DNA of 64,000 bases from Kiritimatiellia bacterium (GTDB lineage: Bacteria > Verrucomicrobiota > Kiritimatiellia > RFP12 > UBA1067), in assembly GCA_017525225.1 (NCBI GenBank), contig JAFXTB010000048.1:8799-72798 (forward strand). The letters are read 5' to 3'. Below, piece by piece: positions 2,092-30,045 of the stretch. A program made the position numbers and the translations under genes. Positions within the stretch are counted from its first letter, which is position 1. Every line of letters starts with the position of its first letter. The notes under the pieces were generated by a model. The model was not told the DNA's origin and did no database searches. It saw nothing but the letters and a program-made list of their open reading frames with translations.

Positions 2092-4668
2092 ATGAAAAAC
2101 AAGCACTCCATTCTCAAGGGTATTTCGTTCGGCCTTGCGGCGGCGGCGTTGTGCGCAGCGGCCGCAGATCTCGGCGCAGGCAGGCCGTTGCCGCCGGACA
2201 GGCGTCCGTACGAGTTCAGGAACGCCGGGCGCGACAAAGACGACGTGGCGCCGCTTGTCGATTTCGAGGACGGGCGGGCGTGGCGGGCAACCGCCGCCGA
2301 AGCGGAGGCCTTCTGCGAGATCACGCAGGAGGAGCAGCTTTTCGGGACGAACACCTTGAGGCTTTCGTATTGCGGGAAGGGGGTGTCGCCCCGGGTGTCG
2401 ATCATTCCGCCAAAGCCTGTCGCGCTGCCGGAGACGTTTGACACCATGTACGTATGGGTCATGGGCAACCATTTCGGAACTGGCGGCAATACGGACTTCA
2501 GCATACCCAATTCGGAACTGTTCGCTGTATTTCGCGGCGCGCAGGGCGAAGAGGTGAAGATGTCGCTTGCCAAGGTCGCCTGGCCGGACTGGCACCAGGT
2601 GAACCGACGCTTCACGGAGGCGGAGCGCGCGAAACTGGCAGGCGCGTCGTTTGCAGGGTTCGAGCTTTCCGGCGGCACGCAGACGCAAAGTCTGCAGATG
2701 CATTTCGACAACGTGGCCGTGTTCGTGGACGATCTCAAGACGCCGCTTGCCGTGAAACCGCGCGCGCGCCGCAATCTGAAGCCGCTTCCGGGCGCCGTAC
2801 AGGGCATCAACACGGGCGAGGGGCGGCTGCCTTTCCCGACAGGCGAGGACACGATAATCCCCAGAACCTCCGCGCCGGAGAAAGGCGACATGCTCGCGCA
2901 GTTCAACGGCGGCGCGGTGAAGAAGGACGAGTCTGCCAGCCTCAGGATGGACACCTGGCGGAAGGGGAAGTCGCTCGTGGTGGACTTCTACGCGGCTGCT
3001 GGAACCGTGACCGAAGTATCGGCGGGAACGGCCTGCGAGGCGAAGATCCTAAAGAGCTTCAAGGTTCCGTATCTTGCGTATGGCGACAGGGAAGGGCGGC
3101 TCAGGATCGATCTACTGGAAGGCGGCTGGTACCGCAGCGCGGTGTTCGACTGGTACCGGTCGAACGCCAGCACGCCGAGTTCTACCAACGGCGCGTTCAC
3201 GATGGTCTATCGTCCCAAAACCGATGGCACGTACAACCCGGTGAGCGAACGGCTCGTGATAACCGTGAGCCGCGACTTCGCGGAAGTCCTGCCGGAGATA
3301 CCCAATCCCGCCTCTCCGTACAAGGCTGTCACGGGGAAGAACGCATGGCGCGCCTACGGCAGCTTTGAACATGCGTACGACCGCGCATTCTGGCAGAAGG
3401 TGAAGGAGGCGGGCATCGAGCATGTGGTCGTCAACGACCATGAAACGATGTGGCGTGACAGGGGCGAGAGCTTCACGTTCCGGACGGAAGCCGCGCCTGG
3501 CCGTGGCGGCGACGCCGGGGCCGCGGAGTACTCGCGGTTCATGCGCGGTGAGCTGGGCTATGTGTACGGCCCGTACAACAACTACACGGACTTCTCGCCC
3601 ATGAACGCGCACTGGTCGCGCGATCGCGTGTCGCGCCTGGGCGACGGCAGGATGCTGTCCGCGTGGGTGCGCTGCTACGCGCCGAAACCAGTCTTCGCGC
3701 CGCAGATGTGCGAGGAGATCGTGCCGAAGGCGCAGGCGAAGTTTGCGTTCAACACGGCCTACTGCGACGTGCACACCGCGGTGACCCCATACAGCCGCAC
3801 GGACTACGATGCGCGCGTGCCGGGCGCGGCCACGTTCGCGCAGACGTTCTATGCCTGGGGCGAGCTGCTGCTCCTGCAGAAGAGGTTCTGGAACGGTCCT
3901 GTCTACTCCGAAGGCGGGCGGCAGTTCCTCTATTCCGGGCTTTCCGACGGCAACTATGCGCAGGACGGCGGCTACAACTTCCACGCGCAGCCGTGGATCG
4001 TGGATTTTGACATCCTGAAGATCCATCCGCTGGAATGCAACTTCGGCATGGGCACGCTCGCGATGTTCTCGCCCGGCAAGACGAAGGAGGAAATCCGCCG
4101 CCACAGGCCGCACACGCCTACGGAGAAGGCGCGCGACGAGCTTGTAGATCTGTTCCTCACGGCGACCGTCGCGTTCGGCCATGCGCCGTTCCTCGTGCTG
4201 GACTACTGCTTCGATCCGCCCAAGGCATTCGGTCCGGCATACCATGGGCCTACCAGGACCGTCATGGACAGAGGGCTGCCGGTGGCACTCAGGAGCTATG
4301 CGATGGTGCAGCCGATCGCCGCAATGTATACGCAGTCCGAGGCCAGGAGAATCCGCTACTTCGACGCTTCCGGCAGGATGCTCACGTCGTCGGAGGCGAT
4401 AGCCTCGGGCGATGTCGCGCGCAACCAGGTGTTCGTGGAGTATGCGGATGGCACCTGCGTGGTCGCCAACGGCAATGTGCGCGAGAGGCTGAAGGCCATG
4501 GTCGACGGGTGCGGTTGCGACGTGCCGCCGCGCGCGTTCAAGGCATGGACGAGAGACGGCAGCGTGCGGGCGGAGATTTCAGAGGATGCCGACGGCCGGC
4601 GCACGTATTTCAGCGACTGTCCGGAATTCACCTACAAGGACGGCAGGCTTGTGAAGAAGGCTCCATAG
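2092..4668 (+). CDS. large secreted hypothetical protein (858 aa), possibly carbohydrate-active
   Basis: N-terminal signal peptide MKNKHSILKGISFGLAAAALCAAAA. Long ORF with GC3-rich codon usage. No family motif recognised by eye. Confidence 0.7.
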   Translation: MKNKHSILKGISFGLAAAALCAAAADLGAGRPLPPDRRPYEFRNAGRDKDDVAPLVDFEDGRAWRATAAEAEAFCEITQEEQLFGTNTLRLSYCGKGVSPRVSIIPPKPVALPETFDTMYVWVMGNHFGTGGNTDFSIPNSELFAVFRGAQGEEVKMSLAKVAWPDWHQVNRRFTEAERAKLAGASFAGFELSGGTQTQSLQMHFDNVAVFVDDLKTPLAVKPRARRNLKPLPGAVQGINTGEGRLPFPTGEDTIIPRTSAPEKGDMLAQFNGGAVKKDESASLRMDTWRKGKSLVVDFYAAAGTVTEVSAGTACEAKILKSFKVPYLAYGDREGRLRIDLLEGGWYRSAVFDWYRSNASTPSSTNGAFTMVYRPKTDGTYNPVSERLVITVSRDFAEVLPEIPNPASPYKAVTGKNAWRAYGSFEHAYDRAFWQKVKEAGIEHVVVNDHETMWRDRGESFTFRTEAAPGRGGDAGAAEYSRFMRGELGYVYGPYNNYTDFSPMNAHWSRDRVSRLGDGRMLSAWVRCYAPKPVFAPQMCEEIVPKAQAKFAFNTAYCDVHTAVTPYSRTDYDARVPGAATFAQTFYAWGELLLLQKRFWNGPVYSEGGRQFLYSGLSDGNYAQDGGYNFHAQPWIVDFDILKIHPLECNFGMGTLAMFSPGKTKEEIRRHRPHTPTEKARDELVDLFLTATVAFGHAPFLVLDYCFDPPKAFGPAYHGPTRTVMDRGLPVALRSYAMVQPIAAMYTQSEARRIRYFDASGRMLTSSEAIASGDVARNQVFVEYADGTCVVANGNVRERLKAMVDGCGCDVPPRAFKAWTRDGSVRAEISEDADGRRTYFSDCPEFTYKDGRLVKKAP

Positions 4669-4775: not shown

Positions 4776-5846
4776 ATGGCGAAGGTTAGGTATGCCATCA
4801 TCGGGTTCGGCGGCATCGCCGAGAACCGTGTGGCGAAGGAAGGGTATGCCTGCGACAGAAAGCGGTTCAAACCCTTGAAGAAAGCGGTCCTCACGGGTGC
4901 GACGGACGTCAATCCAGCCCGGCAGGCGGCGGCCGAGGCGCTCGGGCTCAAGTGGTACAAGGACGCGGCGGAGGTGTTCGCCGATCCTTCCGTGGACGCC
5001 GTGTACATCGCCACGAACAACGCCTCACACGCCAAGATCGCCATCGCGGCCCTCAAGGCCGGCAAGCACGTCATAAGCGAAAAGCCCATGGCGACGTCCG
5101 TCGCGGACGCGAAGACGATGGACAGGATCGCCCGCGCCAAGGGGCTCTCGCTCACCGTGGACCACATGATGGTCCACAACGCCTGGAACGTGGCGGCGGC
5201 CAAGGCCGTGCAGGGCGGCAAGCTCGGCAAGGTCAACGACGGGTGCTTCCACATGGAGTTCGCCTACGGCTACGATCCTGCCGAGGCGGCCACCTGGCGC
5301 TGCTCGAAGGTGGAGGAGATGGGCGGACCCATCGGCGACGTGGCGAGCCATTGCTTCTACGTGGCGGAATACGTCTTCGGCAAGCGCATCGCAAAGGTGG
5401 CGGCCGTGTACTACCCCAAGATCATGAAGATCAAGGCGGAGGATGGCGCGTACATAAAGTACTTCTTCGAGGATGGCACGCAGGGCAGCGTCAACGCGGC
5501 GTTCAGCGAGCTGCGCGGCGGCCTCGCCGGCACGCTCACGAACCTCGGCTTCGAGGTCTACGGCGACAAGGCGGCGCTGCGTTCCTACGGCACGATGTTC
5601 CAGCTCTCCGGATATGACGACGAGCCCATCCGCCAGAGGCTCGAGCTCGACGACGGCCGCACCGTAGCGGCCATCAAGCCGGCGAAGATCCAGAACGTAT
5701 ACCAGACGCTCATCGAGGGCCACGCGGCCTCGATACTGGCGAAGAAGCCGCTTACGGGCGCGGATGCGATCCACAACCTCGCGCTGTGCGCGGCGGCGCA
5801 CGAGTCCGCGAAGAAGGGCGGCAGGACGATCACGGTCAGGCTGTAG
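4776..5846 (+). CDS. Gfo/Idh/MocA-family NAD(P)-dependent oxidoreductase
   Basis: N-terminal Rossmann MAKVRYAIIGFGGIAENR, then EKP motif (VISEKPMATS), typical of the Gfo/Idh/MocA family. SD-like AAGGAAGGAAAGAG upstream. Confidence 0.85.
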   Translation: MAKVRYAIIGFGGIAENRVAKEGYACDRKRFKPLKKAVLTGATDVNPARQAAAEALGLKWYKDAAEVFADPSVDAVYIATNNASHAKIAIAALKAGKHVISEKPMATSVADAKTMDRIARAKGLSLTVDHMMVHNAWNVAAAKAVQGGKLGKVNDGCFHMEFAYGYDPAEAATWRCSKVEEMGGPIGDVASHCFYVAEYVFGKRIAKVAAVYYPKIMKIKAEDGAYIKYFFEDGTQGSVNAAFSELRGGLAGTLTNLGFEVYGDKAALRSYGTMFQLSGYDDEPIRQRLELDDGRTVAAIKPAKIQNVYQTLIEGHAASILAKKPLTGADAIHNLALCAAAHESAKKGGRTITVRL

Positions 5847-5872
5847 AAGTTGAAATGGAAGAGGAAGAAACA

Positions 5873-7378
5873 ATGAAGAAGCTTGCAATGGCATCGGCGG
5901 CCGCGCTGTGCGCGGCGACCGTGGCGGGGGATTTCAAGGCGGGGTTCTCCCGCGTGGACATCACGCCTCCGCTCGGTTCGTTCATGCCCGGGTACTACAA
6001 GGACCGCAGGGCGAAGGAGGTGCTCGACCCCCTGACGATCAACTGCGTGGCGTTCTCGGACGGCGCCAAGACGGCGCTCGTGATGCAGTTCGACACCGAG
6101 GCGCTGTCGGACTCCGTGGCAGACAAGATGCGCGACGCCGTGGCGAAGGCGACGGGTGTCGATCGGGACGCCATGCTTCTGCACGCATCGCACACGCATG
6201 ACGGCGCGTACCTCGCTATGAAGACGGACAATGGCTCCGCCTCCTCTGCGAAGGTCGGCGACGACGGAGTGCCGAGCAACGCCACGAAGCTGGACATGAT
6301 CTATGTGGACATGTGCGTGACGCGCGCGGCGGACGCCGCCGTGGAGGCCATCCGCGACCTCAAGCCCGCGAAACTCTCCTACCAGCGCTCGGAGGCGAAG
6401 CGGATATCGTTCGGCCGCAGGTATCTGATGAAGGATGGCAAGGTGCGCACTAACCCCGGCACCAACAACCCCGACATCGTCAAGCCGGCCGGCATTCCGC
6501 CGGACGAGGAGGTGCAGCTGCTGCGCATCGACCGCGATGGCGGCAAGCCGATCTGCATGATCAACTTCCAGACGCACCCGGACGTTGTGGGTGGCGAGAC
6601 GATCACGGCGGACTGGCCCGGCCTGACGCGCACGGTCTTCGAGGCGGCCACGCTCGGCAAGACGCACTGCATCGTCATAAACGGCACGCAGGGCGACGTG
6701 AACCACTGCAACGTGATGCCCAAGCCGGGCGAGCTCAACGGCCTGAAGCGCGACTTCGACGCCGTGGACCGCGGCTACGATCATGCGTGGCACATGGCGA
6801 ACGTGCTTGCCGCCGCGGCGCTCTCCAAGTGGATGAAGTGCATCCCGCTCGAGGCGGGCCCCATCAGGTTCGCCACGAGGAACGTGCGCGTGCCCGCCCA
6901 CAAGGCCAAGGACTCGGACGAGAAGAACCTCGCCTGGGCGAACGACGTCTGGAAGCTTCACGCGAAGGCGGAGAAGGACGGCGTCGCTGGCACTCCCAAG
7001 GACTACGTGACCATCAAGTACGGATGGGCGGACATGGAGCTGACGACCGAGGTCGCGCGCGCCGGGCGCATCCGCCGCATGGCGAAGCACTCCGACTACC
7101 ACGACCTGCCGATCTACGGGGTCGCCATCGGCAAGTCGCTCGCGTTCGGCGGATTCCAGGGAGAGCCGTTCAACGACATCGGCAAGGCCGTGAAGAAGGG
7201 GTCGCCCTTCACGCTCACGATCCTCTCGTGCCTGACCAACGGTAGCCGCGGCTATTTCCCGTTCTCCGATGCCTACGTGGGCGGCGGGTACGAGTCGGCC
7301 ACGTCGCCGTTCGGTCCAACCGTGGCCGACGACCTCATCGCGGGGCAGCTTAAATTGTTGGGTGAATTGGCAAAATAG
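5873..7378 (+). CDS. secreted neutral/alkaline (non-lysosomal) ceramidase-like N-terminal-domain protein
   Basis: Signal peptide MKKLAMASAAALCAATVAG. SRVDITPPLGSFMPGYY ... LLHASHTHDGAY resembles bacterial neutral ceramidase (GRSDITGP...MLAATHTHSGP). Start chosen at ATG 5873 (GAGGAAG SD) rather than track start 5786. Confidence 0.65.
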   Translation: MKKLAMASAAALCAATVAGDFKAGFSRVDITPPLGSFMPGYYKDRRAKEVLDPLTINCVAFSDGAKTALVMQFDTEALSDSVADKMRDAVAKATGVDRDAMLLHASHTHDGAYLAMKTDNGSASSAKVGDDGVPSNATKLDMIYVDMCVTRAADAAVEAIRDLKPAKLSYQRSEAKRISFGRRYLMKDGKVRTNPGTNNPDIVKPAGIPPDEEVQLLRIDRDGGKPICMINFQTHPDVVGGETITADWPGLTRTVFEAATLGKTHCIVINGTQGDVNHCNVMPKPGELNGLKRDFDAVDRGYDHAWHMANVLAAAALSKWMKCIPLEAGPIRFATRNVRVPAHKAKDSDEKNLAWANDVWKLHAKAEKDGVAGTPKDYVTIKYGWADMELTTEVARAGRIRRMAKHSDYHDLPIYGVAIGKSLAFGGFQGEPFNDIGKAVKKGSPFTLTILSCLTNGSRGYFPFSDAYVGGGYESATSPFGPTVADDLIAGQLKLLGELAK

Positions 7379-12319: not shown

Positions 12320-13504
12320 ATGAGACAGATCAATTGCTGGATTGTCGCGGGACTTGCGGTCGTCGCGGCTTGTGCACAGGCCCAGGATGTCGCGAAGTTC
12401 GATCCGCGCATGGCCATGGAGAAGGCCGAGATCGACACGAACGGCGTCAAGTGGATAGACGGCCGATATCTGCCGCTGGAAGGAAAGTACTTCCAGGACG
12501 TGGATAGATTCTACGACCGGCTGCCGTCTGGCGTGACGACGAACGTCAACGGGGGCGTCCGCAGCATGAAGTGCCATACGTCCGGGATGATGTTCCGTTT
12601 CCGGACCGATTCCAAGCACCTTACGTTCCGCTGGATTCCGATCTCCCCCAATCTGGCCATGGGTCACATGCCCGCGACGGGCGTATCCGGCATCGACGTC
12701 TACTGCCAGGACGCCAAGGGACGCTGGCGCTACGTGAAGACGGGTCGCATATCGGATGCGGTCAAAGGCGGTACGCTGACGATGGGCTGGACGCCCGGCT
12801 CGGCCTGCCTCGTGAACCTGCCTCTCTACAACGGCATCAAGTCCTTCTCGCTCGGCATCGACAAGAATGCCAAGGTGGAGGCTCTCGGTCCGCGCAAGAG
12901 CGGCATCGACAAGCCGGTTGTGTTCTACGGCACATCGATCACCCACGGTGGCTGCGCGTCCCGTCCGGGCATGGGCTTCGTGAACATCGTCGGCCGCGAT
13001 CTCGACGTGCCGGTGTGCAACCTCGGATTCTCCGGCTCGGGCCGCATGGAGATGGAGATGGTCGACCACCTCGCGCGCATCGACGCGAGCTGCTATGTGC
13101 TGGACTGCCTGTGGAACATGGGCACGCCCAGCACCAAGCCTGGCACCGCCTTCGACGACATGCTGGCGGCGGGGTACGACAAGAAAGATCCGATCCCGGT
13201 CGTGCGCTTTCGCTACGAGCCGTTCATCCGCGCGCTCCGCGCGAAGCGGCCGGACGTGCCGATCGTCATGGCGGAGCAGTGCGACGTGTTCTGCGGCGAG
13301 AAGAGCGTCAAGAACAAGTTCGTGCGCGCCCTCTACGAGAAGCTCGTGGCGGAAGGCTGGAAGAACCTCGTTTACCTTCCCAACGACACGATGTATTCAG
13401 GCGACGGGGAAGGCACCGTGGACGGCTGCCATCCGAACGACCTCGGCATGATGTCGATGGGCAAGGCCTTCGGCAAGGCGGTGCGCGAGGCGTTGAAGCT
13501 GTAA
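12320..13504 (+). CDS. secreted SGNH/GDSL-family hydrolase (carbohydrate or sialate O-acetylesterase-like)
   Basis: Signal peptide MRQINCWIVAGLAVVAACAQA. VVFYGTSITHGG (GDS-like block I) and DGCHPND (block V DxxH). AAGGAG SD 7 nt upstream. Paralog of 30046..31146. Confidence 0.75.
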   Translation: MRQINCWIVAGLAVVAACAQAQDVAKFDPRMAMEKAEIDTNGVKWIDGRYLPLEGKYFQDVDRFYDRLPSGVTTNVNGGVRSMKCHTSGMMFRFRTDSKHLTFRWIPISPNLAMGHMPATGVSGIDVYCQDAKGRWRYVKTGRISDAVKGGTLTMGWTPGSACLVNLPLYNGIKSFSLGIDKNAKVEALGPRKSGIDKPVVFYGTSITHGGCASRPGMGFVNIVGRDLDVPVCNLGFSGSGRMEMEMVDHLARIDASCYVLDCLWNMGTPSTKPGTAFDDMLAAGYDKKDPIPVVRFRYEPFIRALRAKRPDVPIVMAEQCDVFCGEKSVKNKFVRALYEKLVAEGWKNLVYLPNDTMYSGDGEGTVDGCHPNDLGMMSMGKAFGKAVREALKL

Positions 13505-13529
13505 CCGCCACTGGCAGGGAGTGAGTGAC

Positions 13530-16500
13530 ATGGCAAGACCGATCTTTCTGGCCGCGGCCGCCATCATGGCCATTGTTTCCGTGTACGCCGCCGAAGGGCA
13601 GGCGTGCAAGGGCCGTACGCCGGCCGAGGCATATCGCGCCAACATCGCAGCCGGAATGAAGACGCCAGAGACGTCGCGTCTTTTCGAGAAGTTCACGGAT
13701 CCCGTGTCGGGTGTGGTATCCTACATCCTGAAGCCGGGATCCATCGCCTTCAACCAGCAGACTACGTACTTCACGGCGAAGTCGATGACGGACGACGGGC
13801 GATTCCTCGTGTTCCATGCGGCGGACGACGAGTTCCCGCCCGAAAAGCAGGGCCAGCGCGTCCCCGTCAGAAAGCGCAAGGTGCTGATCGACTTCCTCAA
13901 GGACGAAGCCATCGATATCGGAGCGGGCGGCGGGATACCTTTTCTCGACACCGCAACCGACCAGATGTGGTACACCGACAATCAGGGTCTGCACCGGCGC
14001 GACTTCCTCGTCAACCCCACGAACGATGTGCTCGTCTGCACCTGGCCGCCGGAGCTGGCGCCAAAGCGCACGGGCGGCAGGTACGGAACGCACATAACGT
14101 TCTCGCCCGACCGGCGGTTCATGTTCATGGATACCACCATCGACGGACAGGACGTGGAGGGCGTCGTGGACACGGCCACCGGCAAATGGATCGAATGGGC
14201 GCGCTCCAACTTCCTCTGCAACCATGGGCAGTTCAACCCGAAGGATCCCACCCTCGCCATGTGCGCCTGGGAGAACGCCTGGCAGAAGGTACGCGACGAG
14301 ATGACGCCCGAGGAAATCGCCAAGGCCACGTTCACGAGACGCTTCGTCAGTGACATCCGCCGCGACTCCGACGACGTATATCCCCGCCTCTGGCTCATGC
14401 GCCAGGGGAAGAAGTGGGAAGTGACCTCTAAGATCACGGGCTATGCTACGCACGAATATTTCGCGGAGGACGGCAAGGGCTTCTACTGGTGTTCGAGCGG
14501 CGTGAGCTACCATGATCTCGCCACGGGCCGCGAATGGCGCATCAACCCAGTCGGCTCCGCGCACGCGACGATGACGGCCGACAACAGGTACATAGTCGCG
14601 GACTGTAGCTGGGGTGGCTGGTGGCGCGGCTGCGGCTGGACGGTACATTTCTGGAATCGCGATACCCACCGCGCGGTATACGTCCATTCCTGCCGTCCGC
14701 GCATCGCCTCCAAGGCCAACGAGAGCAAGCTACATCCCGACCCCCATCCGCATTTCGCCTGCCTCGACCGTTACATCATTAGCACCTTCAACGACGAAGA
14801 GCGCCGTATGAACGTGTCGATCACGCCCGTGGAGCAGCTGGTGAGGATCACATCCGATCCTGCCACCGCGCCCAGGCCGAAGACCTTCCCGCTCGCGTTC
14901 GACCCTGCCTCGCGCACGGACGCCACGTACGAGATGGAGATCGACGTGAAGTCGCTCAAGGACCGCAAGTTCGTCGCATCGCCGCCCTGCACCGTCGGCG
15001 CCGACAGCTACACGCCGTTCGCGCTCAGGGCGGTTGTCGGCGGCAAGGAGGGGCCTCTGCCGTTCGAGGCCGTGCAGGGAAGCGACTTCAAGCGGAACGT
15101 AGTACTGCGCTTCAAGCTGCCGAAGGGCGTCGAGAAGCTCTTCTGCGTGGCCGACGCCCCCGGCCGCTTCGAATACTACGATTCGGAATCCTGCGCCAAC
15201 ATCTTCGCGCATGCCTACGAGCATGAAAACTTGGGCCGCTGGACCTGCGGGACCGGAGTGGAAGGGTCCACGCACCGCGCAGGGCTCGTGTTCACGCGCA
15301 CGGCGGCGGATGGCGATGCGTTCCCGGGTGCGGCGTACACGGCCGATCTGCCCGATGGCGTGGCAGGACGCGACTTCAAGTTCGAGCTGAACCTGAACAA
15401 CCTCGGCGTGTCCGAATGGTGCGGCGGCATCCGCATGCAGCAGCTGGATGCCTCCGGCGCCGAACTCGGCGACGCATTCAACGGCCGCGGGCTGACGAAG
15501 ACCATCGCCCCCGGCAGGCGCCGCGAGTTCCGCCTGACGGGCCGCATTGCCCCGGCCGCGAGGAAGGTGCGCCTGGAGATTGGTCTCAAGTCTAAGGATG
15601 GCAAGCCGGCCAAGGTGCTTGTATGGAGGATGAACCTGCGCGAGGCGACGGTATTCCCGTACACACCTCCCGCAGATGTCACAATGAAGACGCCGGAGAC
15701 GTCGAAGAATTTCGTCAAGCGCGTGGACAAGCGCACGAAGCTGACATCGTACGTGCTGAAGCCCGGGCTCGTGGACGACAGCCAGCAGAGCTGGTACTTC
15801 ACGGCGAAGTCTATGACCGACGATGGACGTTTCCTCTTCTTCTGGGCGTTCAAGAACGAGAACAAGCCGCAGACAGGCAAGCGGATGGCGTACGTCGATT
15901 TCCTTGACGATACCGTCCACACCACCGACATCATGGAACTTCCTTTCCAGAAGCCTTTCCTTGACGTGGAGACGGACCGCCTATACTACATCCGCCGCGA
16001 TCCGGACAGAATATGCCGCCGGGACTTGCTCTCCGACCCAGAGAAGGAGATCACGATGGCGATGATACCGGAACGCTTCACGCGGCCTGGCGTCAAGGTG
16101 AGGTACTACTGTACCCACCTTACGCTCACACGCGACAGGCAGAAGGCGTTTCTCGACGTCGGCCTGACCGAAGGCGGAAAGGATACGTACGAGCAGGGGC
16201 TTCTCGATCTCAGGACAGGCCGGTGGGAGAAGTGGACCGAGACGGATTTCTTCTGCAACCACGGCCAGATATGCCCTACGGACGACGCTCTCGCGCTCTG
16301 CGCATGGGAAAGATGCTGGAAGAAGACGGTGGTGTCGAATGGTGTACCTGTTGAGATCGACCGTCCGAAGGACGAGCCGTATCCCCGCGTATGGCTCCTG
16401 CGTGCGGACGGCACGAAGCGGAACATACTGCCGGAGGAGTTCAACTACGCCACGCACGAGCACTGGCAGACGGACGGCAAGGGCATCATGTGGTGCTGCT

Positions 16501-18011
16501 CCAACGGGCTCTACGGCTACAATCTCGGCGAGGACCGCCAGTACTGCATAATGCCGTTCGCCGCAGGGCACGCCACCATGACCGACGGCAACCGGTACGT
16601 TGTCACGGACTATCCTGTCGGCGGCTGGTACCGTGGCTGCAACTGGCAGACCGTGTTCTACGACCGCATGACGGGCAAGGTGGTGTTCCCGCACTACAAG
16701 AACGACAGGCTGTGCCCCGATGACGGCGGAATGCACAACCACCCCGATCCGCATCCGCAGTTCGTCTGCCGCGATCGCTACATCGTGAGCACCATCAACA
16801 TGGCCGACGGCCACATGGATCTTTCCGTCACGCCTGTCGGGCCGCTCATGGACCGCACGCGCTTCGCGACGGATTCCGGCGGACATTCGCGCAACTTCTG
16901 GTTCGACGCCCTGCCGAAGGAGGCTTCGCCGATGGAAGTGGGCGGACGCATCGTCAGGCAGTTCCTGTCGTCCCCGCCCGACGCCTACTTCCCGAAGGGT
17001 GCGACGGCGCTTCACGCCAGGGGGTACGTGCCGTACGCAATAGTGAGTACATGGGCGAACGCGATCGAATACGCCTCGCGCACGCACAACGCGTATCTTG
17101 AAACGCGCCTTGCAGATCTCTTCAAGCCGTTCACCGGTCCGAAGAAGAACGAGTGTTCGCGTCCGGACCACGTGGACTTCTCGATATTCGGCGCGGTGCC
17201 GATGTCCGTGGCGCGCCTCACGGGCGACAAGACGCTGCGCAAATTCGGCCTGGACTATGCCGACAGGCAGTGGACGCGTCCCGCGGGTCCGGAGGACGTG
17301 CGCATCTCGAAGAACGAGGTGGACGTTCCGTACGAGGAGCGCCTGAGGCTCTTCGACCAGGGCTACACGGCGCAGACGCGCTTCTGGATCGACGACATGT
17401 ACATGATCACGGTGCTGCAGACGCAGGCCTATCTGACCACTCGCGACAGGAAGTACCTCGATCGCGCCGCAAAGGAAATGTGCCTCTATCTCGACCGCCT
17501 GCAGCTCAAGGAGGGCAGGGCGAAGGGGCTGTTCTACCATGCGCCGGACGTCCCGTACGTCTGGGGGCGCGGAGCTGGCTGGATGGCTGGCGGCATGGCG
17601 CTGCTGCTGAGGCACCTGCCAGAGGATTCCGAATACCACGCGCGCATCACGGCCGGGTACAGGTCGATGATGGAGGCGCTTCTCAGGTTCCAGCGCGCCG
17701 ACGGCATGTGGGGGCAGCTTGTGGACGAGCCGGAGAGCTGGGCCGAGTCCTCGGGGTCGGCCATGTTCACCTCGGCCTTCATCGTCGGCGTGCGCCGTGG
17801 CTGGCTCGACATGAACGCATACGGACCTGCCGCGCGCAAGGCATGGCTCGCCCTCTGCCGCCGTCTCGACCGCTACGGCAACATTTCGGACGTCTGCATG
17901 GGCACCGGCAAGAAGAACGACCACCAGTACTATCTCGACCGTCCGCGCCTCAACGGCGATCCCCACGGACAGGCGCCGATGCTCTGGTGCGTCAACGCCA
18001 TGTTGGAATAG
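13530..18011 (+). CDS. giant secreted multidomain enzyme: two PL22-like oligogalacturonate-lyase beta-propeller domains + C-terminal GH88/GH105-like unsaturated glycuronyl hydrolase
   Basis: Internal duplication (MKTPETSRLFEKFTDP...YILKPG...YFTAKSMTDDGRFL twice). Both copies carry FxCNHGQ and HPDPHP(H/Q)F resembling the Ogl/PL22 THPHPSF region. C-terminal FWIDDMYMITVLQTQAY and (alpha/alpha)6-like sequence resemble YteR/UGL. Start ATG 13530 (AGGGAG 9 nt upstream) rather than GTG 13521. Confidence 0.7.
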   Translation: MARPIFLAAAAIMAIVSVYAAEGQACKGRTPAEAYRANIAAGMKTPETSRLFEKFTDPVSGVVSYILKPGSIAFNQQTTYFTAKSMTDDGRFLVFHAADDEFPPEKQGQRVPVRKRKVLIDFLKDEAIDIGAGGGIPFLDTATDQMWYTDNQGLHRRDFLVNPTNDVLVCTWPPELAPKRTGGRYGTHITFSPDRRFMFMDTTIDGQDVEGVVDTATGKWIEWARSNFLCNHGQFNPKDPTLAMCAWENAWQKVRDEMTPEEIAKATFTRRFVSDIRRDSDDVYPRLWLMRQGKKWEVTSKITGYATHEYFAEDGKGFYWCSSGVSYHDLATGREWRINPVGSAHATMTADNRYIVADCSWGGWWRGCGWTVHFWNRDTHRAVYVHSCRPRIASKANESKLHPDPHPHFACLDRYIISTFNDEERRMNVSITPVEQLVRITSDPATAPRPKTFPLAFDPASRTDATYEMEIDVKSLKDRKFVASPPCTVGADSYTPFALRAVVGGKEGPLPFEAVQGSDFKRNVVLRFKLPKGVEKLFCVADAPGRFEYYDSESCANIFAHAYEHENLGRWTCGTGVEGSTHRAGLVFTRTAADGDAFPGAAYTADLPDGVAGRDFKFELNLNNLGVSEWCGGIRMQQLDASGAELGDAFNGRGLTKTIAPGRRREFRLTGRIAPAARKVRLEIGLKSKDGKPAKVLVWRMNLREATVFPYTPPADVTMKTPETSKNFVKRVDKRTKLTSYVLKPGLVDDSQQSWYFTAKSMTDDGRFLFFWAFKNENKPQTGKRMAYVDFLDDTVHTTDIMELPFQKPFLDVETDRLYYIRRDPDRICRRDLLSDPEKEITMAMIPERFTRPGVKVRYYCTHLTLTRDRQKAFLDVGLTEGGKDTYEQGLLDLRTGRWEKWTETDFFCNHGQICPTDDALALCAWERCWKKTVVSNGVPVEIDRPKDEPYPRVWLLRADGTKRNILPEEFNYATHEHWQTDGKGIMWCCSNGLYGYNLGEDRQYCIMPFAAGHATMTDGNRYVVTDYPVGGWYRGCNWQTVFYDRMTGKVVFPHYKNDRLCPDDGGMHNHPDPHPQFVCRDRYIVSTINMADGHMDLSVTPVGPLMDRTRFATDSGGHSRNFWFDALPKEASPMEVGGRIVRQFLSSPPDAYFPKGATALHARGYVPYAIVSTWANAIEYASRTHNAYLETRLADLFKPFTGPKKNECSRPDHVDFSIFGAVPMSVARLTGDKTLRKFGLDYADRQWTRPAGPEDVRISKNEVDVPYEERLRLFDQGYTAQTRFWIDDMYMITVLQTQAYLTTRDRKYLDRAAKEMCLYLDRLQLKEGRAKGLFYHAPDVPYVWGRGAGWMAGGMALLLRHLPEDSEYHARITAGYRSMMEALLRFQRADGMWGQLVDEPESWAESSGSAMFTSAFIVGVRRGWLDMNAYGPAARKAWLALCRRLDRYGNISDVCMGTGKKNDHQYYLDRPRLNGDPHGQAPMLWCVNAMLE

Positions 18012-18757: not shown

Positions 18758-19957
18758 ATGAAACGCAGGACGGTTCTGTTCCTTGGCGACGGCATGGCCG
18801 ATGAGCCGCTGCCGTCGCTGGGCGGCATTACGCCGCTGCAGGCGGCCCGCACTCCAAACATGGACTGGATCGCCGCCAACGGACGCTGCGGCGACATGCT
18901 TACGCTTCCGGACGGCTTCCCGACATCGTCCGACGTCGCCAACATGTCCGTTCTCGGCGGCGACCTGGCGAAGGAGCTCTGCGGACGCGGTCCATTGGAG
19001 GCCGCGTCGCAGGGCATAGCGATGGGGCCAGACGATGTCGTATTCCGCGTGAACCTCATATCCGTGGCTCCGGACGGTACGCTGGCGGACTTCTCCGGCG
19101 GGCATGTCGGCGAGGTCGAGCAGCGCGAGGCCATCGCGCTTCTGAACGAGAGGATCGCGGATGCATGGAAGGGGAATCCCGGCGAGTACATCAGGTTCTA
19201 CGCAGGCGTCTCCTACCGCAACCTCGTGCTTCTGCATGGTCCAGCGTTCAGCGGTTCGGCCGTCGCCTACGACAAGCCGGACGACAACAGCGGCAATCCC
19301 GTCTTGGAACATCTGCCCCGTGCCCGGACGCCCGAGGGCGAATACACGGCAGGGGTTCTTCGCGATCTCGTGGCGCGTGCGGCCGAAGTCCTTGTCGGTC
19401 GTCCTGCGAACGGCATCTGGCCGTGGTCCGGCGGCAAGGCCGGCGCCATACATTCTGTGGCGGATAGATACGGCATCAAGGGTGCGATCGTCGCGGCGGT
19501 CGACGTGATAAACGGCCTTGGACGCACGATGGGGCTTGACGTCATAAAGGTGCCTGGTGCAACCGGCTACATCGATACGAACTACGAGGGCAAGGCCGAC
19601 GCCGCCATCAAGGCGATCCGGGATGGTTATGATTTCGTGTATGTGCACATCGAGGCGACCGACGAGGTGTCGCATGCGCAGGATCTCAAGCTGAAGATCA
19701 AGGCGCTCGAGGATTTCGACGGCAGGCTCATCGGGCGCGTAAGAGCGGCGCTGGGCGACGATGTGGCGTACTGCGTCCTGCCGGACCATCCCGTACCGAT
19801 CCGCCTCGGCAAGCATACCCGCACGCCCGTGCCGGTGGCCGTGTACCAGCCCGGCATCCCTGCCGACCACGTCGGGGCGTACAACGAGATAGATTGTCCG
19901 AAAGGCGCTCTCGGACATCTCGCCGGCGGCGATCTCATGGATTTGCTGCTTGGATGA
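18758..19957 (+). CDS. apgM: cofactor-independent phosphoglycerate mutase, archaeal-type (ApgM family metalloenzyme)
   Basis: [17 protein letters not shown] start and the overall ApgM/alkaline-phosphatase-superfamily pattern ([23 protein letters not shown]). Start 4 nt after the previous stop. Confidence 0.8.
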
Positions 19958-20001
19958 CGATTTGTGCAGACGTCGTATGCGCTGCGGCAGGAGGAGGTGC
20001 A

Positions 20002-21189
20002 ATGTTCAAAAGACATCTCAAGACAGGGCAGAGATCGGCCGTCGCTGTAGCGGCGGTGTCCGCGGCCATGCTTCTGCCTGCCGGTGAACTGCCGGTCGTC
20101 GACCTGAGCGGCGATGCCAGCCGGCATGCCGTCATCGCCGCCGGAACGGAAAAGGACTACCAGGGACATCCGACGACGGTGCTGACGCCGGACGGACGCA
20201 TCATCGCCGTCTGGTGCACGCCTCACGGCGGATGGTGTGGCCCGGCGGCGGAGAGCGCAGATGGCGGGAAGACATGGACGCGCATAGACGGCCGTTTCCC
20301 GGAGGGTTTCCGTCGCCATGTGAACTGCCCGAGCATATACCGCCTGGAAGGCCCCGACGGCAAGGCGCGGATCTGGACATGGAGCCAGGTGAAGATGCCG
20401 CCAGACGCGAAGGACCATGACGACCACCGCGAGCGGGGCGAGCCGATGCCGTCCGTCATGAGCGAGGACGAAGGGCGTACGTGGAGGGAGATGCCGCCCT
20501 TGGGCGCGAAGTTCCGCTGCGTGATGGCCTTCGCCTCCATCGTGCGCCTGAAGGACGGTTCGTACCTCGGCATGTTCCACGCCGGTCCCGGTGGCGCCGA
20601 TAGGCCGCCTCTCAAGGTCTGGCAGTCCGTCACAAGGGACGGAGGATTCACATGGAGCGATCCCGTCCTCGTGGCGTCCGTAGAGGGCAAGAACCTATGC
20701 GAGCCTTATGTGTTCCGTTCGCCGGATGGCGGCGAGCTTTGCTGCCTCATGCGCGAAAACACGCACAAGGGGTGTTCGATGATGATGTTCTCGCAGGACG
20801 ACGGCCGCACATGGTCGGTGCCCGAGGATTCTCCCTGGGGGCTCACGGGCGATCGGCATCAAGGTGTTCAGCTGCCCGACGGGCGGTTCGTGGTGGCGTT
20901 CCGCGACATGGCGCCGAAGTCGCCGACGCGCGGGCATTTCGTTGCGTGGGTTGGACCCTACGCCGCGATCAGATCACGCGAGAAGAAGGGTACCTATCGC
21001 ATCAAGCTGCTTCACAACTATGCCGGCGTGGACTGCGGCTATCCCGGTATACACCTCCTGCCGGACGGCACCATCATCGCGACGACATACGTCAAGTACT
21101 GGAACGACGCCAGGCAGCAGTCGGTAGTCTCCACGCGCTTCCGGGTGGAAGAGACTGACAGGCGCATCATGTTGCAAACCGGTCCATGA
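20002..21189 (+). CDS. secreted BNR/Asp-box repeat sialidase-like glycoside hydrolase
   Basis: Four Asp-boxes ([32 protein letters not shown]), signal peptide [37 protein letters not shown]. No clear RIP motif, so the sialidase assignment is moderate. Confidence 0.65.
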
Positions 21190-21200
21190 TGGTGTATAAT
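21172..21200 (+). promoter_or_regulatory. sigma70-like promoter TTGCAA-17-TATAAT upstream of the mutarotase-symporter gene
   Basis: TTGCAA 21172-21177, 17-nt spacer, TATAAT 21195-21200. Confidence 0.5.
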
Positions 21201-21234
21201 GCCGTCCGTGTCAGTTGTCCAAGAGAGATTCAAG

Positions 21235-23817
21235 ATGAAGATGGCGTTGTCTGCGAGGTACGGCGTACTGGCGTTCGCCGGTGCATGTCTTTCCACCTGC
21301 CTCTGGGCGCATGTGGAGCTGAACTGGGGCGAGGAGTTCCTTCTGCCGCCATTGGACGGCAGACCCAACGTGGGCGTGGCAAGGCCCTTCGCGGGCGTTT
21401 CCAACGGACGCGTCCTTCTTGCCGGCGGCGCGAACTTCCCGGTGAAGCCGCTCATCGAGGGCGGCCCCAAGGTCTACCATGACGAGATCTGGAGCTTCGA
21501 TCCGTCGGCTGCGAAGCCGGCATGGGAGCTTTCGGGACGTCTGCCCATGGCGCGCGGGGAAGGTGCGTATGCGACCGTGCCACAGGGCGTGGTGTGCGTC
21601 TCCGGCGCGATCGGTGCCGACGGCAAGGCGCTCACGAACGGATGCTTCCTCATGCGCTGGGAAGGCGGCCAGGTGCAAGTTTCCGACCTGCCGCCATTCC
21701 CCGAGCCGGCGAGATACGCGGCCGCCGCCTCGCGAGGCTCCAAGGTGTATGCGGTAGGTGTCCGCAAGGTGGCGTCCATCGACCTGGGCGACGCGAATCC
21801 GCGGTGGACTTCGCTACCCGACCTCCCGGAAGAGGTGTTCCAGCCTGCATGCGCCGTGCAGAACCTCTCGCACCAGCGCACGGGGCTTTTCGTCTTCGCG
21901 GAGCACGGGAAGGACAAGCTTTCCGGCGGATGGTTCCTGGATCTCGCCCCGGATGCCGCCGCAGGCTGGCAGCCGGTCCCCGACGTCCCTGCGGACGGAC
22001 CTCTCGGGGACCGCAAGTTCGTAGGTTCGCTCGCGCTCGCCTCTGGCGACCAGCACATACTCTTCTTCGGCGGCACCAGTCGAGGCCCGGCGCGTGAAAG
22101 CGAAGGCAAGGGACGCGACTGGTACCTCAATCATCCGCCGGAATGGTTCCGCTTCCCGAAGGCCGTGCTTGTCTACCACACCGTCACCGAGCGCTGGTTC
22201 ACGCTGGCGGAGACTCCGTTCCCGGGCCGCGCCGGGGCCGCGCTCGTGGCGCTGCCCGACGGCCGCATCCTGCTGCATGGCGGAGAGATCGGCCCTGGCA
22301 CGCGCACGCCTCGCGGCGCGATCGGCGCCTTCGCGCGCACGAAGGGGTGGCATCCGGTCAACTATGCGGTGGTGGTGCTGTATTTCGCGGCCATGGCCGG
22401 GATGGGGTTCTGGTTCATGCGGCGCAACAGGTCTTCCGACACGTACTTCAAGGGTGGCGGCCACATCCCGTGGTGGTTCGTCTCGATGTCCATATACGCC
22501 ACGATGCTCTCGTCGATCACCTTCATCTCGATCCCGGCGCTGGTGTACCTAACGGACTGCCGCTATTTCGCGATCACGTTCGGCATACTCATACTCGCGC
22601 CGATAGTCACGCGCTACTATCTGCCGTTCTTCCGCCGGCTCAACCTCACGAGCGCGTACGAGTACCTGGAGGTGCGCTTCAACCTCGCATGCCGTCTCTT
22701 TGCGTCGGCGGCGTTCATCCTCTTCATGGTCGCGCGCACGGCGATAGTCACGTACCTTCCGGCGATCGCGCTTTCCGCGGTCGTGGATGTGGACGTCAAC
22801 CTGTCGATCGTGCTGGTGACCGCGGTGACGATCCTCTACTGCACGCTTGGCGGCGTGGAGGCCGTCATCTGGAGCGATTTCGTGCAGTCGCTCATCCTGA
22901 TACTCGGAACGCTGATGATATACGCATACCTCGTGTGCGGCACGGAAGGGGGGCTGGGCGGCTTCATCGCGATGGGCGCGGCGGCGGAGAAGTTCAGGGT
23001 GTTCGATTTCACTCTCGACTGGTCGAAGCCCGTGTTCTGGGTGGTGTTCGTGGGCGGAGTGGTGGCGAATCTCGCGTCCTACACCTCCGACCAGTGTGTG
23101 GTGCAGCGTTACATGACCACGAAGGACGAGCAGGGCGCGGCGCGCTCGATCCTCTTCAACGGCGTACTGTCCTTCGTCAACAGCATGGTGTTCTTCACGC
23201 TGGGCGTGGCGCTCTGGACGTTCTTCCGCTCCAACCCCAGCCTCCTGGAGGTGACGATGCCGAAGAACGATTCAGTGTTCCCCCTCTTCATCGGCGGCGT
23301 GCTGCCTGTCGGCGTGTCGGGGCTGATACTCGCCGCCGTGGCGGCGGCCACGATGAGCACGCTCTCCGCGAACCTCAACAGCGCGGCGTCGGCCTTCACC
23401 ACCGACTTCTTCGCGCGCCTGGGCAGGAACGTGTCCGATGCCGCCAAGCTCCGCTGCGGACGCATCGCCACCATCGTCACGGGTCTTCTGGGGGGCTTCT
23501 TCGCGCTGGTGCTGGCGAACATGGAGATACACTCGATCTACGACCAGTTCCAGAGGTTCCTCGGAATCCTGACGGGCGGACTCGGATGCCTCTTCTTCAT
23601 GGGCATATTCATGAAGCGCGTGACACCCGCCGGGGCGACGGCCGGGCTTGTGGCTAACTACGCGGTCTGCTTCGCGCTCGACCAGCTTTCGTTCCCGCAC
23701 AAGCCGCATCTGCTGCTCTTCGGCGCGCTGGGCATGGTCGCGTGCCTGGTGGTGGCGCCGCTGGTGAGCGCGCTGACGCGCGGGCCGCAGACCGATCACC
23801 CGCGTACCGGCCCGTGA
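21235..23817 (+). CDS. fusion protein: periplasmic kelch-type sialic-acid mutarotase (NanM/cyclically-permuted mutarotase-like) + sodium:solute symporter (SSS, SiaT-like)
   Basis: Signal peptide MKMALSARYGVLAFAGACLSTCLWA. N-terminal ~370 aa is kelch/galactose-oxidase-like with repeated GG..GG blocks. C-terminal ~500 aa has 13 or more TM helices with SSS-family character. Start ATG 21235, since the track start 21199 overlaps the -10. Confidence 0.7.
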   Translation: MKMALSARYGVLAFAGACLSTCLWAHVELNWGEEFLLPPLDGRPNVGVARPFAGVSNGRVLLAGGANFPVKPLIEGGPKVYHDEIWSFDPSAAKPAWELSGRLPMARGEGAYATVPQGVVCVSGAIGADGKALTNGCFLMRWEGGQVQVSDLPPFPEPARYAAAASRGSKVYAVGVRKVASIDLGDANPRWTSLPDLPEEVFQPACAVQNLSHQRTGLFVFAEHGKDKLSGGWFLDLAPDAAAGWQPVPDVPADGPLGDRKFVGSLALASGDQHILFFGGTSRGPARESEGKGRDWYLNHPPEWFRFPKAVLVYHTVTERWFTLAETPFPGRAGAALVALPDGRILLHGGEIGPGTRTPRGAIGAFARTKGWHPVNYAVVVLYFAAMAGMGFWFMRRNRSSDTYFKGGGHIPWWFVSMSIYATMLSSITFISIPALVYLTDCRYFAITFGILILAPIVTRYYLPFFRRLNLTSAYEYLEVRFNLACRLFASAAFILFMVARTAIVTYLPAIALSAVVDVDVNLSIVLVTAVTILYCTLGGVEAVIWSDFVQSLILILGTLMIYAYLVCGTEGGLGGFIAMGAAAEKFRVFDFTLDWSKPVFWVVFVGGVVANLASYTSDQCVVQRYMTTKDEQGAARSILFNGVLSFVNSMVFFTLGVALWTFFRSNPSLLEVTMPKNDSVFPLFIGGVLPVGVSGLILAAVAAATMSTLSANLNSAASAFTTDFFARLGRNVSDAAKLRCGRIATIVTGLLGGFFALVLANMEIHSIYDQFQRFLGILTGGLGCLFFMGIFMKRVTPAGATAGLVANYAVCFALDQLSFPHKPHLLLFGALGMVACLVVAPLVSALTRGPQTDHPRTGP

Positions 23818-28799: not shown

Positions 28800-30017
28800 A
28801 TGAAACTGATGGAAGATGCACGATCCAATGCTGCATGGCTGACGTGCCTGGCAACGGCGTTCGCATGCCTCGCGGCGGCGGCGCAGATGGAGTCGTTCAA
28901 CACGGACTATCCCGGCGCGAACGGGAAGCTCCAGTCGATAGACCGTGCCTCACGCACAGTGCGCTACGAGTCGGACTGGCGCGGAGGCAGCCACTACTGG
29001 TTCAATTTCGAGGCTCGCGGCTTCACCGGCAGATGGCGGTTCATAGGCTCGCGCATCACCAAGGTGGGCCCGGCAGTGAGCGAGGATGGCGGCAAGAGCT
29101 GGTACTTCCTCTACCCGAGTGCCGACGCCCAGCGCGAGATATTCGACTTCGACTTCGGCGATGTCGCAAGGCCCGTGCGCTTCGCACTGTCGATCCCGTA
29201 CCAGCTTGCCGACTGGAACCGTCTGGCGGACCGGATCCGCGGCAAGGAGGGCGTGAAGCTTGGCGTGCTGTGCAAGGACCGTCTGGGTACGCCGGCGCCG
29301 GTCCTGGAGATATGCCGTTCGGAAAGGCCGGAGTGGACCTTCCTCTTCACCGCCCGCCACCATGCGTGCGAGTGTTCGGCGAGCTGGGTCATGGAGGGCC
29401 TGATCGACGAGGTCCTTTCCGATACTCCGGAGGCGCGCTGGGTGCGCGAACGGGCGCGGATCGTCTGCGTGCCGTTCATCGATCTCGATGGCGTGGAGCA
29501 GGGCGAGCAGGGCAAGAGCCGCAAGCCGCACGACCACAACCGGGACTACGCGCAGGAACTCTATCCCACGATCAAGGCGCTCAAGGCGTACGTCAAGGCG
29601 CATTGCATGGACGGCAGTCTTGTGTTCATCGACATGCATTCGCCTGGCGTGCGCGGCATCGAGCACGACCACTACTATGGTCTGGGACCCGCAGGCGAAG
29701 GCCCGAACCGCCTTTGGCTCGCCTACAGCCGCGAGCTGGAAAAGGCGACGCGCCGTGCCCGGCTGCGCTACGATCCGCAGTGGGACATCCCGTTCGGGCG
29801 GCCCTGGAACACGGAGGCGCTTTTCTACAGCAGCAACGACCTGGTGAAGTCCGACCGCTACTTCGCCTCGCTGCCCAACTGCAAGCTTGCCTTCTGCATG
29901 GAGTACGGCTACGGCCTGTGCGGCGGCATATTCTGTCCTGAAGGGGCGAACGAAGTAGGCCGCTGCACGATCAAGGCGGTAGTCAGATCGCTGACCGGCC
30001 AGTCGAATGCCAGGTGA
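28800..30017 (+). CDS. secreted M14-like zinc carboxypeptidase-family protein
   Basis: Signal peptide. FTARHHACECSASW (HxxE zinc motif), NRDY, and a later MHS histidine. AAAAGGAG SD. Confidence 0.5.
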   Translation: MKLMEDARSNAAWLTCLATAFACLAAAAQMESFNTDYPGANGKLQSIDRASRTVRYESDWRGGSHYWFNFEARGFTGRWRFIGSRITKVGPAVSEDGGKSWYFLYPSADAQREIFDFDFGDVARPVRFALSIPYQLADWNRLADRIRGKEGVKLGVLCKDRLGTPAPVLEICRSERPEWTFLFTARHHACECSASWVMEGLIDEVLSDTPEARWVRERARIVCVPFIDLDGVEQGEQGKSRKPHDHNRDYAQELYPTIKALKAYVKAHCMDGSLVFIDMHSPGVRGIEHDHYYGLGPAGEGPNRLWLAYSRELEKATRRARLRYDPQWDIPFGRPWNTEALFYSSNDLVKSDRYFASLPNCKLAFCMEYGYGLCGGIFCPEGANEVGRCTIKAVVRSLTGQSNAR

Positions 30018-30045
30018 AGGCGGTGTGCCGAAGGAGGCTGGAGCC

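Follow-up and report, generated by a model that had tools for sequence, protein, structure and literature searches.

A 64,000-nucleotide stretch of a Kiritimatiellia bacterium genome (GenBank assembly GCA_017525225.1, contig JAFXTB010000048.1, positions 8,799 to 72,798 of the forward strand; hereafter the window) carries a gene whose single product combines two β-propellers resembling the oligogalacturonate lyases (Ogl) of polysaccharide lyase family 22 (PL22) with a domain of glycoside hydrolase family 105 (GH105) type. Coordinates below are window positions, and all features of this gene lie on the + strand. In the list of open reading frames (ORFs), the frame at 13521–18011 runs uninterrupted, without a stop codon, over 4.5 kb, and the complete coding sequence at 13530–18011 encodes 1,493 amino acids (aa) followed by the stop codon. 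The start codon is likely the ATG at 13530, as judged from a Shine–Dalgarno-like GGGAG located 9–13 nt upstream. The initial annotation, made from the DNA alone, had described a single polypeptide of ~1,490 aa, which holds as to the single ORF, with the length corrected to 1,493 aa. The protein is composed of a signal peptide, PL22-like propeller 1, a β-sandwich or carbohydrate-binding module (CBM)-like module, PL22-like propeller 2 and the GH105 domain, in this order. The Sec signal peptide (MARPIFLAAAAIMAIVSVYA, followed by AEG; 13530–13589) was predicted by eye from a hydrophobic N-terminal stretch and a VYA-A motif, and by this signal-like sequence the protein would be exported.

Public annotation conceals the fusion, as one record cuts the gene down to a 387-aa 'GH88 protein'. 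This entry, MBR4652601.1 ('glycoside hydrolase family 88 protein', from a Kiritimatiellae metagenome-assembled genome (MAG)), corresponds only to the C-terminal part of the ORF (16848–18011, aa 1107–1493), and its start would be Met1107, judged from its length. The 1,493-aa product of the same gene was called by a pipeline other than that of NCBI.

Propeller 1 (aa 45–440, 13662–14849) is a PL22-like, seven-bladed propeller according to its structural model and to fold and profile matches; we refer to it as A type, which is normally followed by the β-sandwich module. A homolog search with this copy retrieved 291 proteins, nearly all unnamed or 'hypothetical', the few named ones belonging to Kiritimatiellae, Lentisphaeria and Verrucomicrobia. 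When searched as single sequences against the PDB, neither propeller copy found a match, and only GH105 relatives were returned. The PL22 structures were reached because a profile was used, the single-sequence search being insufficient: the profile of 34 family members matched 3PE7 (E 1.8e-8, profile positions 33–378) and 3C5M (E 7e-8) and essentially nothing else. The AlphaFold model of propeller 1 (predicted local distance difference test (pLDDT) score 89.4, predicted template modeling (TM) score 0.90) led to the same structures. Foldseek placed three PL22 chains (3C5M and 3PE7) on top with E ~1e-17 and TM scores of 0.67–0.73, followed by TolB at ~0.41, so the seven-bladed fold is nearest to the solved PL22 structures. 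No other polysaccharide lyase was described among the structural matches listed (top 50 and top 60). The resemblance to Ogl/PL22 that the initial annotation had suspected is thus borne out by both profile and fold, and the generic PD40/DPP propellers that it had named as the alternative were not what the searches returned. A sub-threshold match of copy 2 to BNR_4 (PL42-related, E 0.01–0.05) was dropped, being without fold-search support, and a match to the NCBIfam model 'beta-galactosidase BglB' was discarded at 75 bits against a cutoff of 420.

The catalytic residues of YeOGL were mapped onto both copies with hmmalign through the family hidden Markov model. Following the roles that Abbott et al. 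reportedly assigned in 2010, we take Arg217 of YeOGL to provide charge stabilization, His242 to be the Brønsted base and His287, His353, His355 and Gln350 to form the metal (Mn2+) site. Arg217 aligns with R286 in copy 1 and R953 in copy 2, and His242 with H308 (14451–14453) and H976 (16455–16457). Of the metal site, His287 corresponds to H345 and H1014, His353 to D404 and D1073, and His355 to H406 and H1075. The latter two positions lie in the block HPDPHPHF of copy 1 (aa 402–409, 14733–14756), a proposed metal-binding His/Asp/His cluster that aligns with T-H353-P-H355-P-S-F of YeOGL, and in HPDPHPQF of copy 2 (aa 1071–1078, 16740–16763). Motif searches located these blocks, as well as FxCNHGQ (aa 228 and 907), in both copies, exactly as had been claimed. 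Across 204 near-complete propeller domains, H308, H345, H402, D404, H406, H232, R91 and R366 are invariant (204/204), and R286 is kept in 200. The residues aligned with the base and the arginine of the PL22 scheme are therefore both conserved, a pattern that looks like the signature of a conserved catalytic center, unlike that of a decayed binding domain.

When the whole library was searched with the family profile, representatives of 475 clusters were matched at E ≤ 1e-3, 158 of them with E ≤ 1e-30. This lyase-like module family of ~475 clusters at 50% identity is unnamed in public databases and sits just outside PL22. PF14583, the Pfam model of PL22 (curated threshold 30 bits), was matched at E ≤ 1 by just 3 of the 34 family members (best E 1.9e-9), and leaderless intermediates of ~380 aa reach it at only 17–23 bits. 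With the PL22 enzymes YeOGL (3PE7) and VPA0088 (3C5M), the propellers share full-length profile homology (E ~1e-8), a domain size of ~390 aa and the equivalents of His242, Arg217, His287 and His355. They differ in the replacement of His353 by Asp and in the extra invariant residues H232, R91 and R366, and also in being built into multidomain proteins, where their partners are GH105, CBM-like modules, rhamnosidases and esterases. Classical Ogl is cytoplasmic, whereas the present protein is predicted to be exported. Because the Pfam model is not reached, a metal ligand has changed and export is predicted, we use the term PL22-like for the propellers; by these comparisons they are not demonstrable members of PL22, and we do not place them in that family. 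The substrate is likely to differ as well: Ogl acts on disaccharides, whereas fusion to GH105 implies products that stay oligomeric, with the unsaturated uronate still on the chain, and the substrate of the propellers is therefore probably not simple digalacturonate.

Propeller 2 (aa 721–1112, 15690–16865) is recognized by its 38% identity to copy 1 and is PL22-like of B type, which is normally fused to GH105. Comparison of aa 1–720 with aa 721–1493 by BLASTP gave a single alignment of aa 45–~500 to ~721–1170 with 38% identity and E = 1e-89, and the similarity of the two copies is far beyond chance. The 'obvious internal duplication' of the initial annotation accordingly stands as homology, while its wording does not: over profile columns the copies are ~42% identical to each other and each is ~45% identical to free-standing family members, and because they are as distant from one another as from stand-alone propellers, they are more aptly regarded as a pair of diverged, paralogous modules linked in tandem. 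No residue differences between A-type and B-type propellers were fixed at the 85% level, so the sequences offer no evidence for distinct specificities. Copy 1 contains a low-confidence, partly helical insertion of ~25 residues (aa ~252–277, ~14283–14363) that is found neither in copy 2 nor in YeOGL.

Between the propellers lies the middle module (aa 441–720, 14850–15689), modeled with confidence as all-β (pLDDT 91.2) and apparently made of two sub-domains, the larger of which resembles a CBM4/CBM22-type β-jelly-roll. An insert of ~250 aa had been placed at about 14800–15670; it exists, and its extent is revised to ~280 aa. The guess that it is a binding module gains fold-level support from matches of CBM4/22/16/61 type, and the fold is that of a β-jelly-roll. 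No sequence family was matched in Pfam at E ≤ 10, and the module differs from CBM4 and CBM22 in this respect and in having an additional β sub-domain of ~100 residues. The secondary-structure layout suggests that this smaller sub-domain is N-terminal, with the jelly roll following. The module was found after an A-type propeller in 46 retrieved homologous domains, a count from which full-length orthologs were left out. The motif of highest conservation, ADAPGRFEYyDSEsCaN, is situated between the two sub-domains, so the module may belong integrally to the A-type propeller instead of being an independent CBM.

The C-terminal domain (aa 1113–1493, 16866–18008) was assigned to GH105 by PF07470 and by profile alignments, from which an (α/α)6 fold is predicted by homology. 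The score of PF07470 (Glyco_hydro_88) over aa 1276–1491 was 154.3 bits (E 5.7e-45), the cutoff being 26.6. All PDB relatives found by sequence are of YteR/GH105 type (3K11, 4Q88, YteR 1NC5/2GH4, 4CE7, 5NOA, 3QWT, 3PMM, 4WU0 and 4XUV, 'family 105'), and no entry named UGL (GH88) was present among the 9–10 PDB sequence matches. The GH88/GH105-like assignment made earlier is thereby upheld, and narrowed in that the domain is nearer to GH105 than to GH88 (UGL). The profile of aa 1113–1493 aligned to residues 8–307 of 4Q88 and 194–410 of 3K11 and so covered both ends, from position 8 in 4Q88 to position 410 in 3K11. The ~165 residues outside the Pfam match therefore appear not to be a linker but to form the N-terminal, divergent portion of a complete barrel. 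The WIDDMYM block noticed initially is indeed present at aa 1286, where it matches the Asp143 motif of YteR. Asp1288 in FWIDDMYM (17391–17393) is the predicted catalytic acid equivalent to YteR Asp143 by motif comparison, a correspondence read by eye, as HMMER left that stretch unaligned to YteR. At the catalytic Asp site, the sequence is MWLDGLYM in wild-type YteR (1NC5) and MWLNGLYM in entry 2GH4, and the Asp of FWIDDMYM (D176 of the domain alignment) is invariant in 13 of 13 sequences. Relative to the GH105 enzymes YteR (1NC5), 4CE7, 5NOA and 3K11, the domain shares the W-[IL]-D-x-x-[YF]-M motif, the C-terminal HG motif and a profile covering nearly the whole barrel. It differs in its divergent N-terminal third, missed by Pfam (profile positions 1–118), and in being fused to lyase-like propellers instead of standing alone.

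The full layout is kept in six orthologous clusters from independent assemblies (P0121–P0126; 1,487–1,505 aa, 66–99% identity, 98–100% coverage), one of which NCBI names 'glycoside hydrolase family 88 protein [Kiritimatiellae bacterium]', and a 99%-identical copy on another contig lies in the same gene order as in the window. This conservation in six clusters excludes an assembly artefact. The coupling itself is more widespread. A propeller and GH105 occur in one polypeptide in dozens of clusters, in either order and also as propeller–GH105–propeller, and GH105 is found within 8 kb in 19 of 79 species-level loci, in the same ORF in 17 of these. The initial annotation did not know the three-part fusion as a described architecture. 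We likewise found no relevant literature on fusions of PL22 or PL22-like propellers with GH105, on the propeller family or on Kiritimatiellae. Yet the protein does not stand alone in its architecture, which is seen again, in full or in part, in public metagenomic data, unannotated or labeled only as 'GH88 family protein'.

The relationships of the two copies point to how the gene may have arisen. Copy 1 is the closer one in 43 of 46 propellers that precede a middle module (mean identity 53% versus 43%), and copy 2 is the closer one, by a small margin, in 19 of 21 propellers that precede GH105. Because copy 1 groups with propeller–middle-module proteins, copy 2 with propeller–GH105 proteins and the copies are distant from each other, the most fitting reading of the gene is that two older types of gene, signal peptide–propeller–CBM-like and propeller–GH105, were fused end to end. 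No pre-fusion arrangement was seen at the closest unfused propeller–CBM-like genes (P0002 and P0003), which are not beside propeller–GH105 genes.

Clues to the substrate come from the partners and neighbors of related propellers. In relatives, the propeller is fused to GH106 α-l-rhamnosidase, to GH78 α-l-rhamnosidase in a propeller–GH105–GH78 chain, to acetyl esterases of the AXE1, SASA and GDSL types and to DUF4861. A propeller–GH105 gene (P0139) is followed by a UxuA-like gene, an SDR gene and a GH28 gene, and, in the case of the ortholog P0125, the second gene downstream is GH78-like. The family occurs mainly in Kiritimatiellia, Lentisphaeria/Victivallales, Verrucomicrobia, Planctomycetes and rumen Bacteroidales, and most MAG names refer to herbivore or human gut. 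From the GH78/GH106, acetyl-esterase and DUF4861 partners, the gene context and this distribution, the substrate is probably an acetylated, rhamnose-containing uronate glycan, most simply rhamnogalacturonan-I. DUF4861 (BT3233) is required by Bacteroides thetaiotaomicron for growth on three glycosaminoglycans (GAGs) (PMC8121099). The most abundant relative is a 1,176-aa GH105–propeller–DUF4861 protein (P0161, L003 8702–12232) in a cluster of 607 member sequences.

The explanation that we favor, and hold to be probable though not firm, is that the gene encodes an exported multimodular enzyme of a gut or rumen Kiritimatiellae bacterium in which two PL22-like lyase modules feed a GH105 domain on a pectic substrate. 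Each propeller would perform a metal-assisted β-elimination. A transition metal at His345/His402/Asp404/His406 (in copy 2, at His1014/His1071/Asp1073/His1075) would serve to bind the carboxylate of the uronate, Arg286 or Arg953 would help to neutralize charge and His308 or His976 would abstract H5, so that the bond at O4 of the uronate is cleaved and a 4,5-unsaturated uronate is left on the new non-reducing end. GH105, with Asp1288 as the catalytic residue, would then hydrate the vinyl ether, free 5-keto-4-deoxyuronate and expose the next sugar, while the β-sandwich/CBM-like module would hold the polymer or lengthen the cleft of propeller 1. On a rhamnogalacturonan-I backbone, the lyase would cut Rha-α1,4-GalA and GH105 would cut ΔGalA-α1,2-Rha. 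Characterized GH105 enzymes act on lyase-made 4,5-unsaturated uronates, and since the fusion to GH105 recurs, it provides what we consider the strongest argument for the propeller being a lyase. For uronate glycans, the standard route has two steps, a lyase and then an unsaturated-uronyl hydrolase, which normally are separate proteins. In the present protein, both steps of this known pathway appear to reside on a single exported chain that carries two lyase-like modules, and the coupling is found again, in either domain order, among gut Kiritimatiellia and their relatives. Substrate channeling through a lyase–lyase–hydrolase chain, as had been proposed, is speculation.

Several points weigh against this explanation. 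Gln350 falls into a gapped region without a placement, the candidate ligand being H402 in copy 1 and H1071 in copy 2, and the ligand His353 is an invariant Asp in the propeller family. Pfam and NCBIfam searches with the whole protein and with each segment gave no match for the propellers or the insert, PF14583 staying unmatched even at E ≤ 10, and identity to the PL22 structures is only 16–19%. GH105 is absent from the vicinity in 60 of the 79 family loci, so the family function does not strictly need it, and no published assay of any propeller-family member was found. A census of 97 neighbors, covering the first ~35 of the 79 loci, was heterogeneous and gave no conserved signal or one like a polysaccharide utilization locus. 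The window itself, with a BNR sialidase-like gene, a NanM–SSF fusion and a DHDPS/NanA-like gene, has a sialic-acid or host-glycan look. Lyase-like propellers can also host other chemistry, as known from GH145/PL42 (PMC8377490).

One alternative keeps the lyase and GH105 chemistry and replaces pectin by a host or microbial acidic glycan, which could be a Rha-GlcA-capped arabinogalactan protein (AGP), a glucuronan, a polymer resembling ulvan or GAGs, or an exopolysaccharide of bacterial origin; we consider this alternative rather unlikely. The sialidase-like, NanM–SSF and DHDPS/NanA-like neighbors would fit such a glycan, whereas the GH28 and hexuronate genes beside P0139, the acetyl-esterase partners and the herbivore-gut distribution suit pectin better. 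Besides YteR, the nearest solved GH105 relatives include the ulvan enzyme 4CE7 and the Bacteroides entry 5NOA, which we take to act on an AGP-type substrate, but only GH105-type structures were matched and no GH88-type (GAG) structure. The DUF4861 partner family is tied to GAG use in B. thetaiotaomicron, and the three GAGs in question are degraded by lyases; no sulfatase, fused or adjacent, was seen in the loci inspected. The rhamnosidase partners would suit Rha-GlcA caps as well (PMC8377490).

It is improbable, in our judgment, that the propellers are not lyases at all and that their PL22-like metal center catalyzes something else, for instance a hydrolysis or the processing of the unsaturated uronate after its release, or that one or both of them are only a binding or scaffold part for GH105. 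The 98–100% conservation, in 204 domains, of the His, the Arg and the metal cluster aligned to the YeOGL residues argues against decayed binding modules. A different reaction would be in keeping with scores below the Pfam PL22 threshold, with the His-to-Asp change among the metal ligands, with H232, R91 and R366, to which the PL22 scheme is not known to assign a role, and with the GH145/PL42 precedent of lyase-like propellers with hydrolase activity. Most family members are unlinked to GH105, whereas the recurrent fusion to an enzyme of lyase products is most simply explained by lyase activity. That the long ORF is an artefact, in which an error of assembly or sequencing merged two or three neighboring genes, or of which only the C-terminal GH105 part is expressed, is scarcely credible: although NCBI gives just the 387-aa GH88 protein at the locus in one MAG and the start of propeller 2 ('...TMKTPETS') resembles the beginning of the mature part of copy 1, the 4.5 kb are continuous, six independent clusters have the same continuous architecture, NCBI itself calls the 1,504-aa ortholog P0125 at full length, copy 2 lacks a separate signal peptide and the upstream 1,106 aa are under strong purifying selection at family-invariant residues.

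If the protein is an exported enzyme with two lyase modules feeding GH105, as we favor, a further and more tentative step can be taken, which we regard as possible but doubtful: the propellers could represent a new family of polysaccharide lyases, or a deep subfamily within PL22, whose members are exported enzymes of the transition-metal/His kind, are exo-acting on Rha-α1,4-GalA or related sugar–uronate linkages and make up, with GH105, single-polypeptide 'peeling machines'. Were this true, these machines, which in relatives also include GH78 or GH106 rhamnosidases and acetyl esterases, would alternate β-elimination with vinyl-ether hydration, a rhamnogalacturonan-type backbone would be dismantled residue by residue from the non-reducing end and the two diverged propellers would cover two linkages or decoration states. 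Comparable enzymes exist: the rhamnogalacturonan lyases of PL11 and PL26, the ulvan lyases of PL24 and PL25 and the Rha-GlcA lyases of PL42 are likewise propeller-fold, β-eliminating enzymes whose products are GH105 substrates. PL26 is exo-acting on rhamnose–uronate linkages. PL42 also acts in this manner (PMC8377490), and such exo-action is the kind of reaction proposed for the propellers here. PL24, PL25 and PL42 are, however, metal-independent His/Tyr enzymes (PMC8377490), whereas the propeller family keeps a PL22-like metal cluster. The sub-threshold BNR_4 match of copy 2 was the only link in sequence to these propeller-fold lyases. If active, the propellers would carry the PL22 metal/His mechanism over to enzymes that are exported and act on polymers, would help to explain the use of pectic glycans by poorly known herbivore-gut bacteria of the Planctomycetes–Verrucomicrobia–Chlamydiae group and would offer compact multi-activity enzymes for pectin processing.

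Several members of the propeller family are of separate note. The cultured isolate Oligosphaera ethanolica DSM 24202 (NZ_JAUSVL010000001.1: 286011–303129, L058) contains a stand-alone propeller member with 42% identity and would suit genetics or expression. Four loci labeled Limosilactobacillus gorillae, Clostridium sp. CAG:138 or Lachnospiraceae (L030, L031, L057 and L089) carry propeller genes 42–57% identical to the query, one of them (L031) with two propeller–CBM-like units; these bins are probably mislabeled or contaminated.

Directly upstream of the fusion gene, at a distance of 25 nt, is a gene for a secreted GxDLY + SGNH esterase (12320–13504, +; PF14607 and PF14606). This neighbor is kept in the 99%-identical contig (L001) and not at an ortholog locus (L002), and it may de-acetylate the same glycan as the fusion enzyme. 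A second, paralogous GxDLY + SGNH (Lipase_GDSL_3) esterase is encoded at 30007–31146 (+). Three ORFs of 1,448–1,503 aa were compared as possible paralogs of the fusion protein in the window and proved unrelated to it (37714–42060, 45161–49558 and 54624–59135, +); two of them contain one PATR autotransporter-type repeat each, and for the third no Pfam match was obtained. The ORFs at 2092–4668 (858 aa) and 5786–7378 (530 aa), both +, had no Pfam match at E ≤ 0.001–0.01. The NanM–SSF fusion is an 872-aa protein (21199–23817, +) that joins a NanM-like Kelch domain of the N-acetylneuraminate epimerase family to a sodium:solute symporter (SSF), and it is adjoined by the BNR sialidase-like gene at 19894–21189; a mutarotase fused to its own transporter in this way is unusual.

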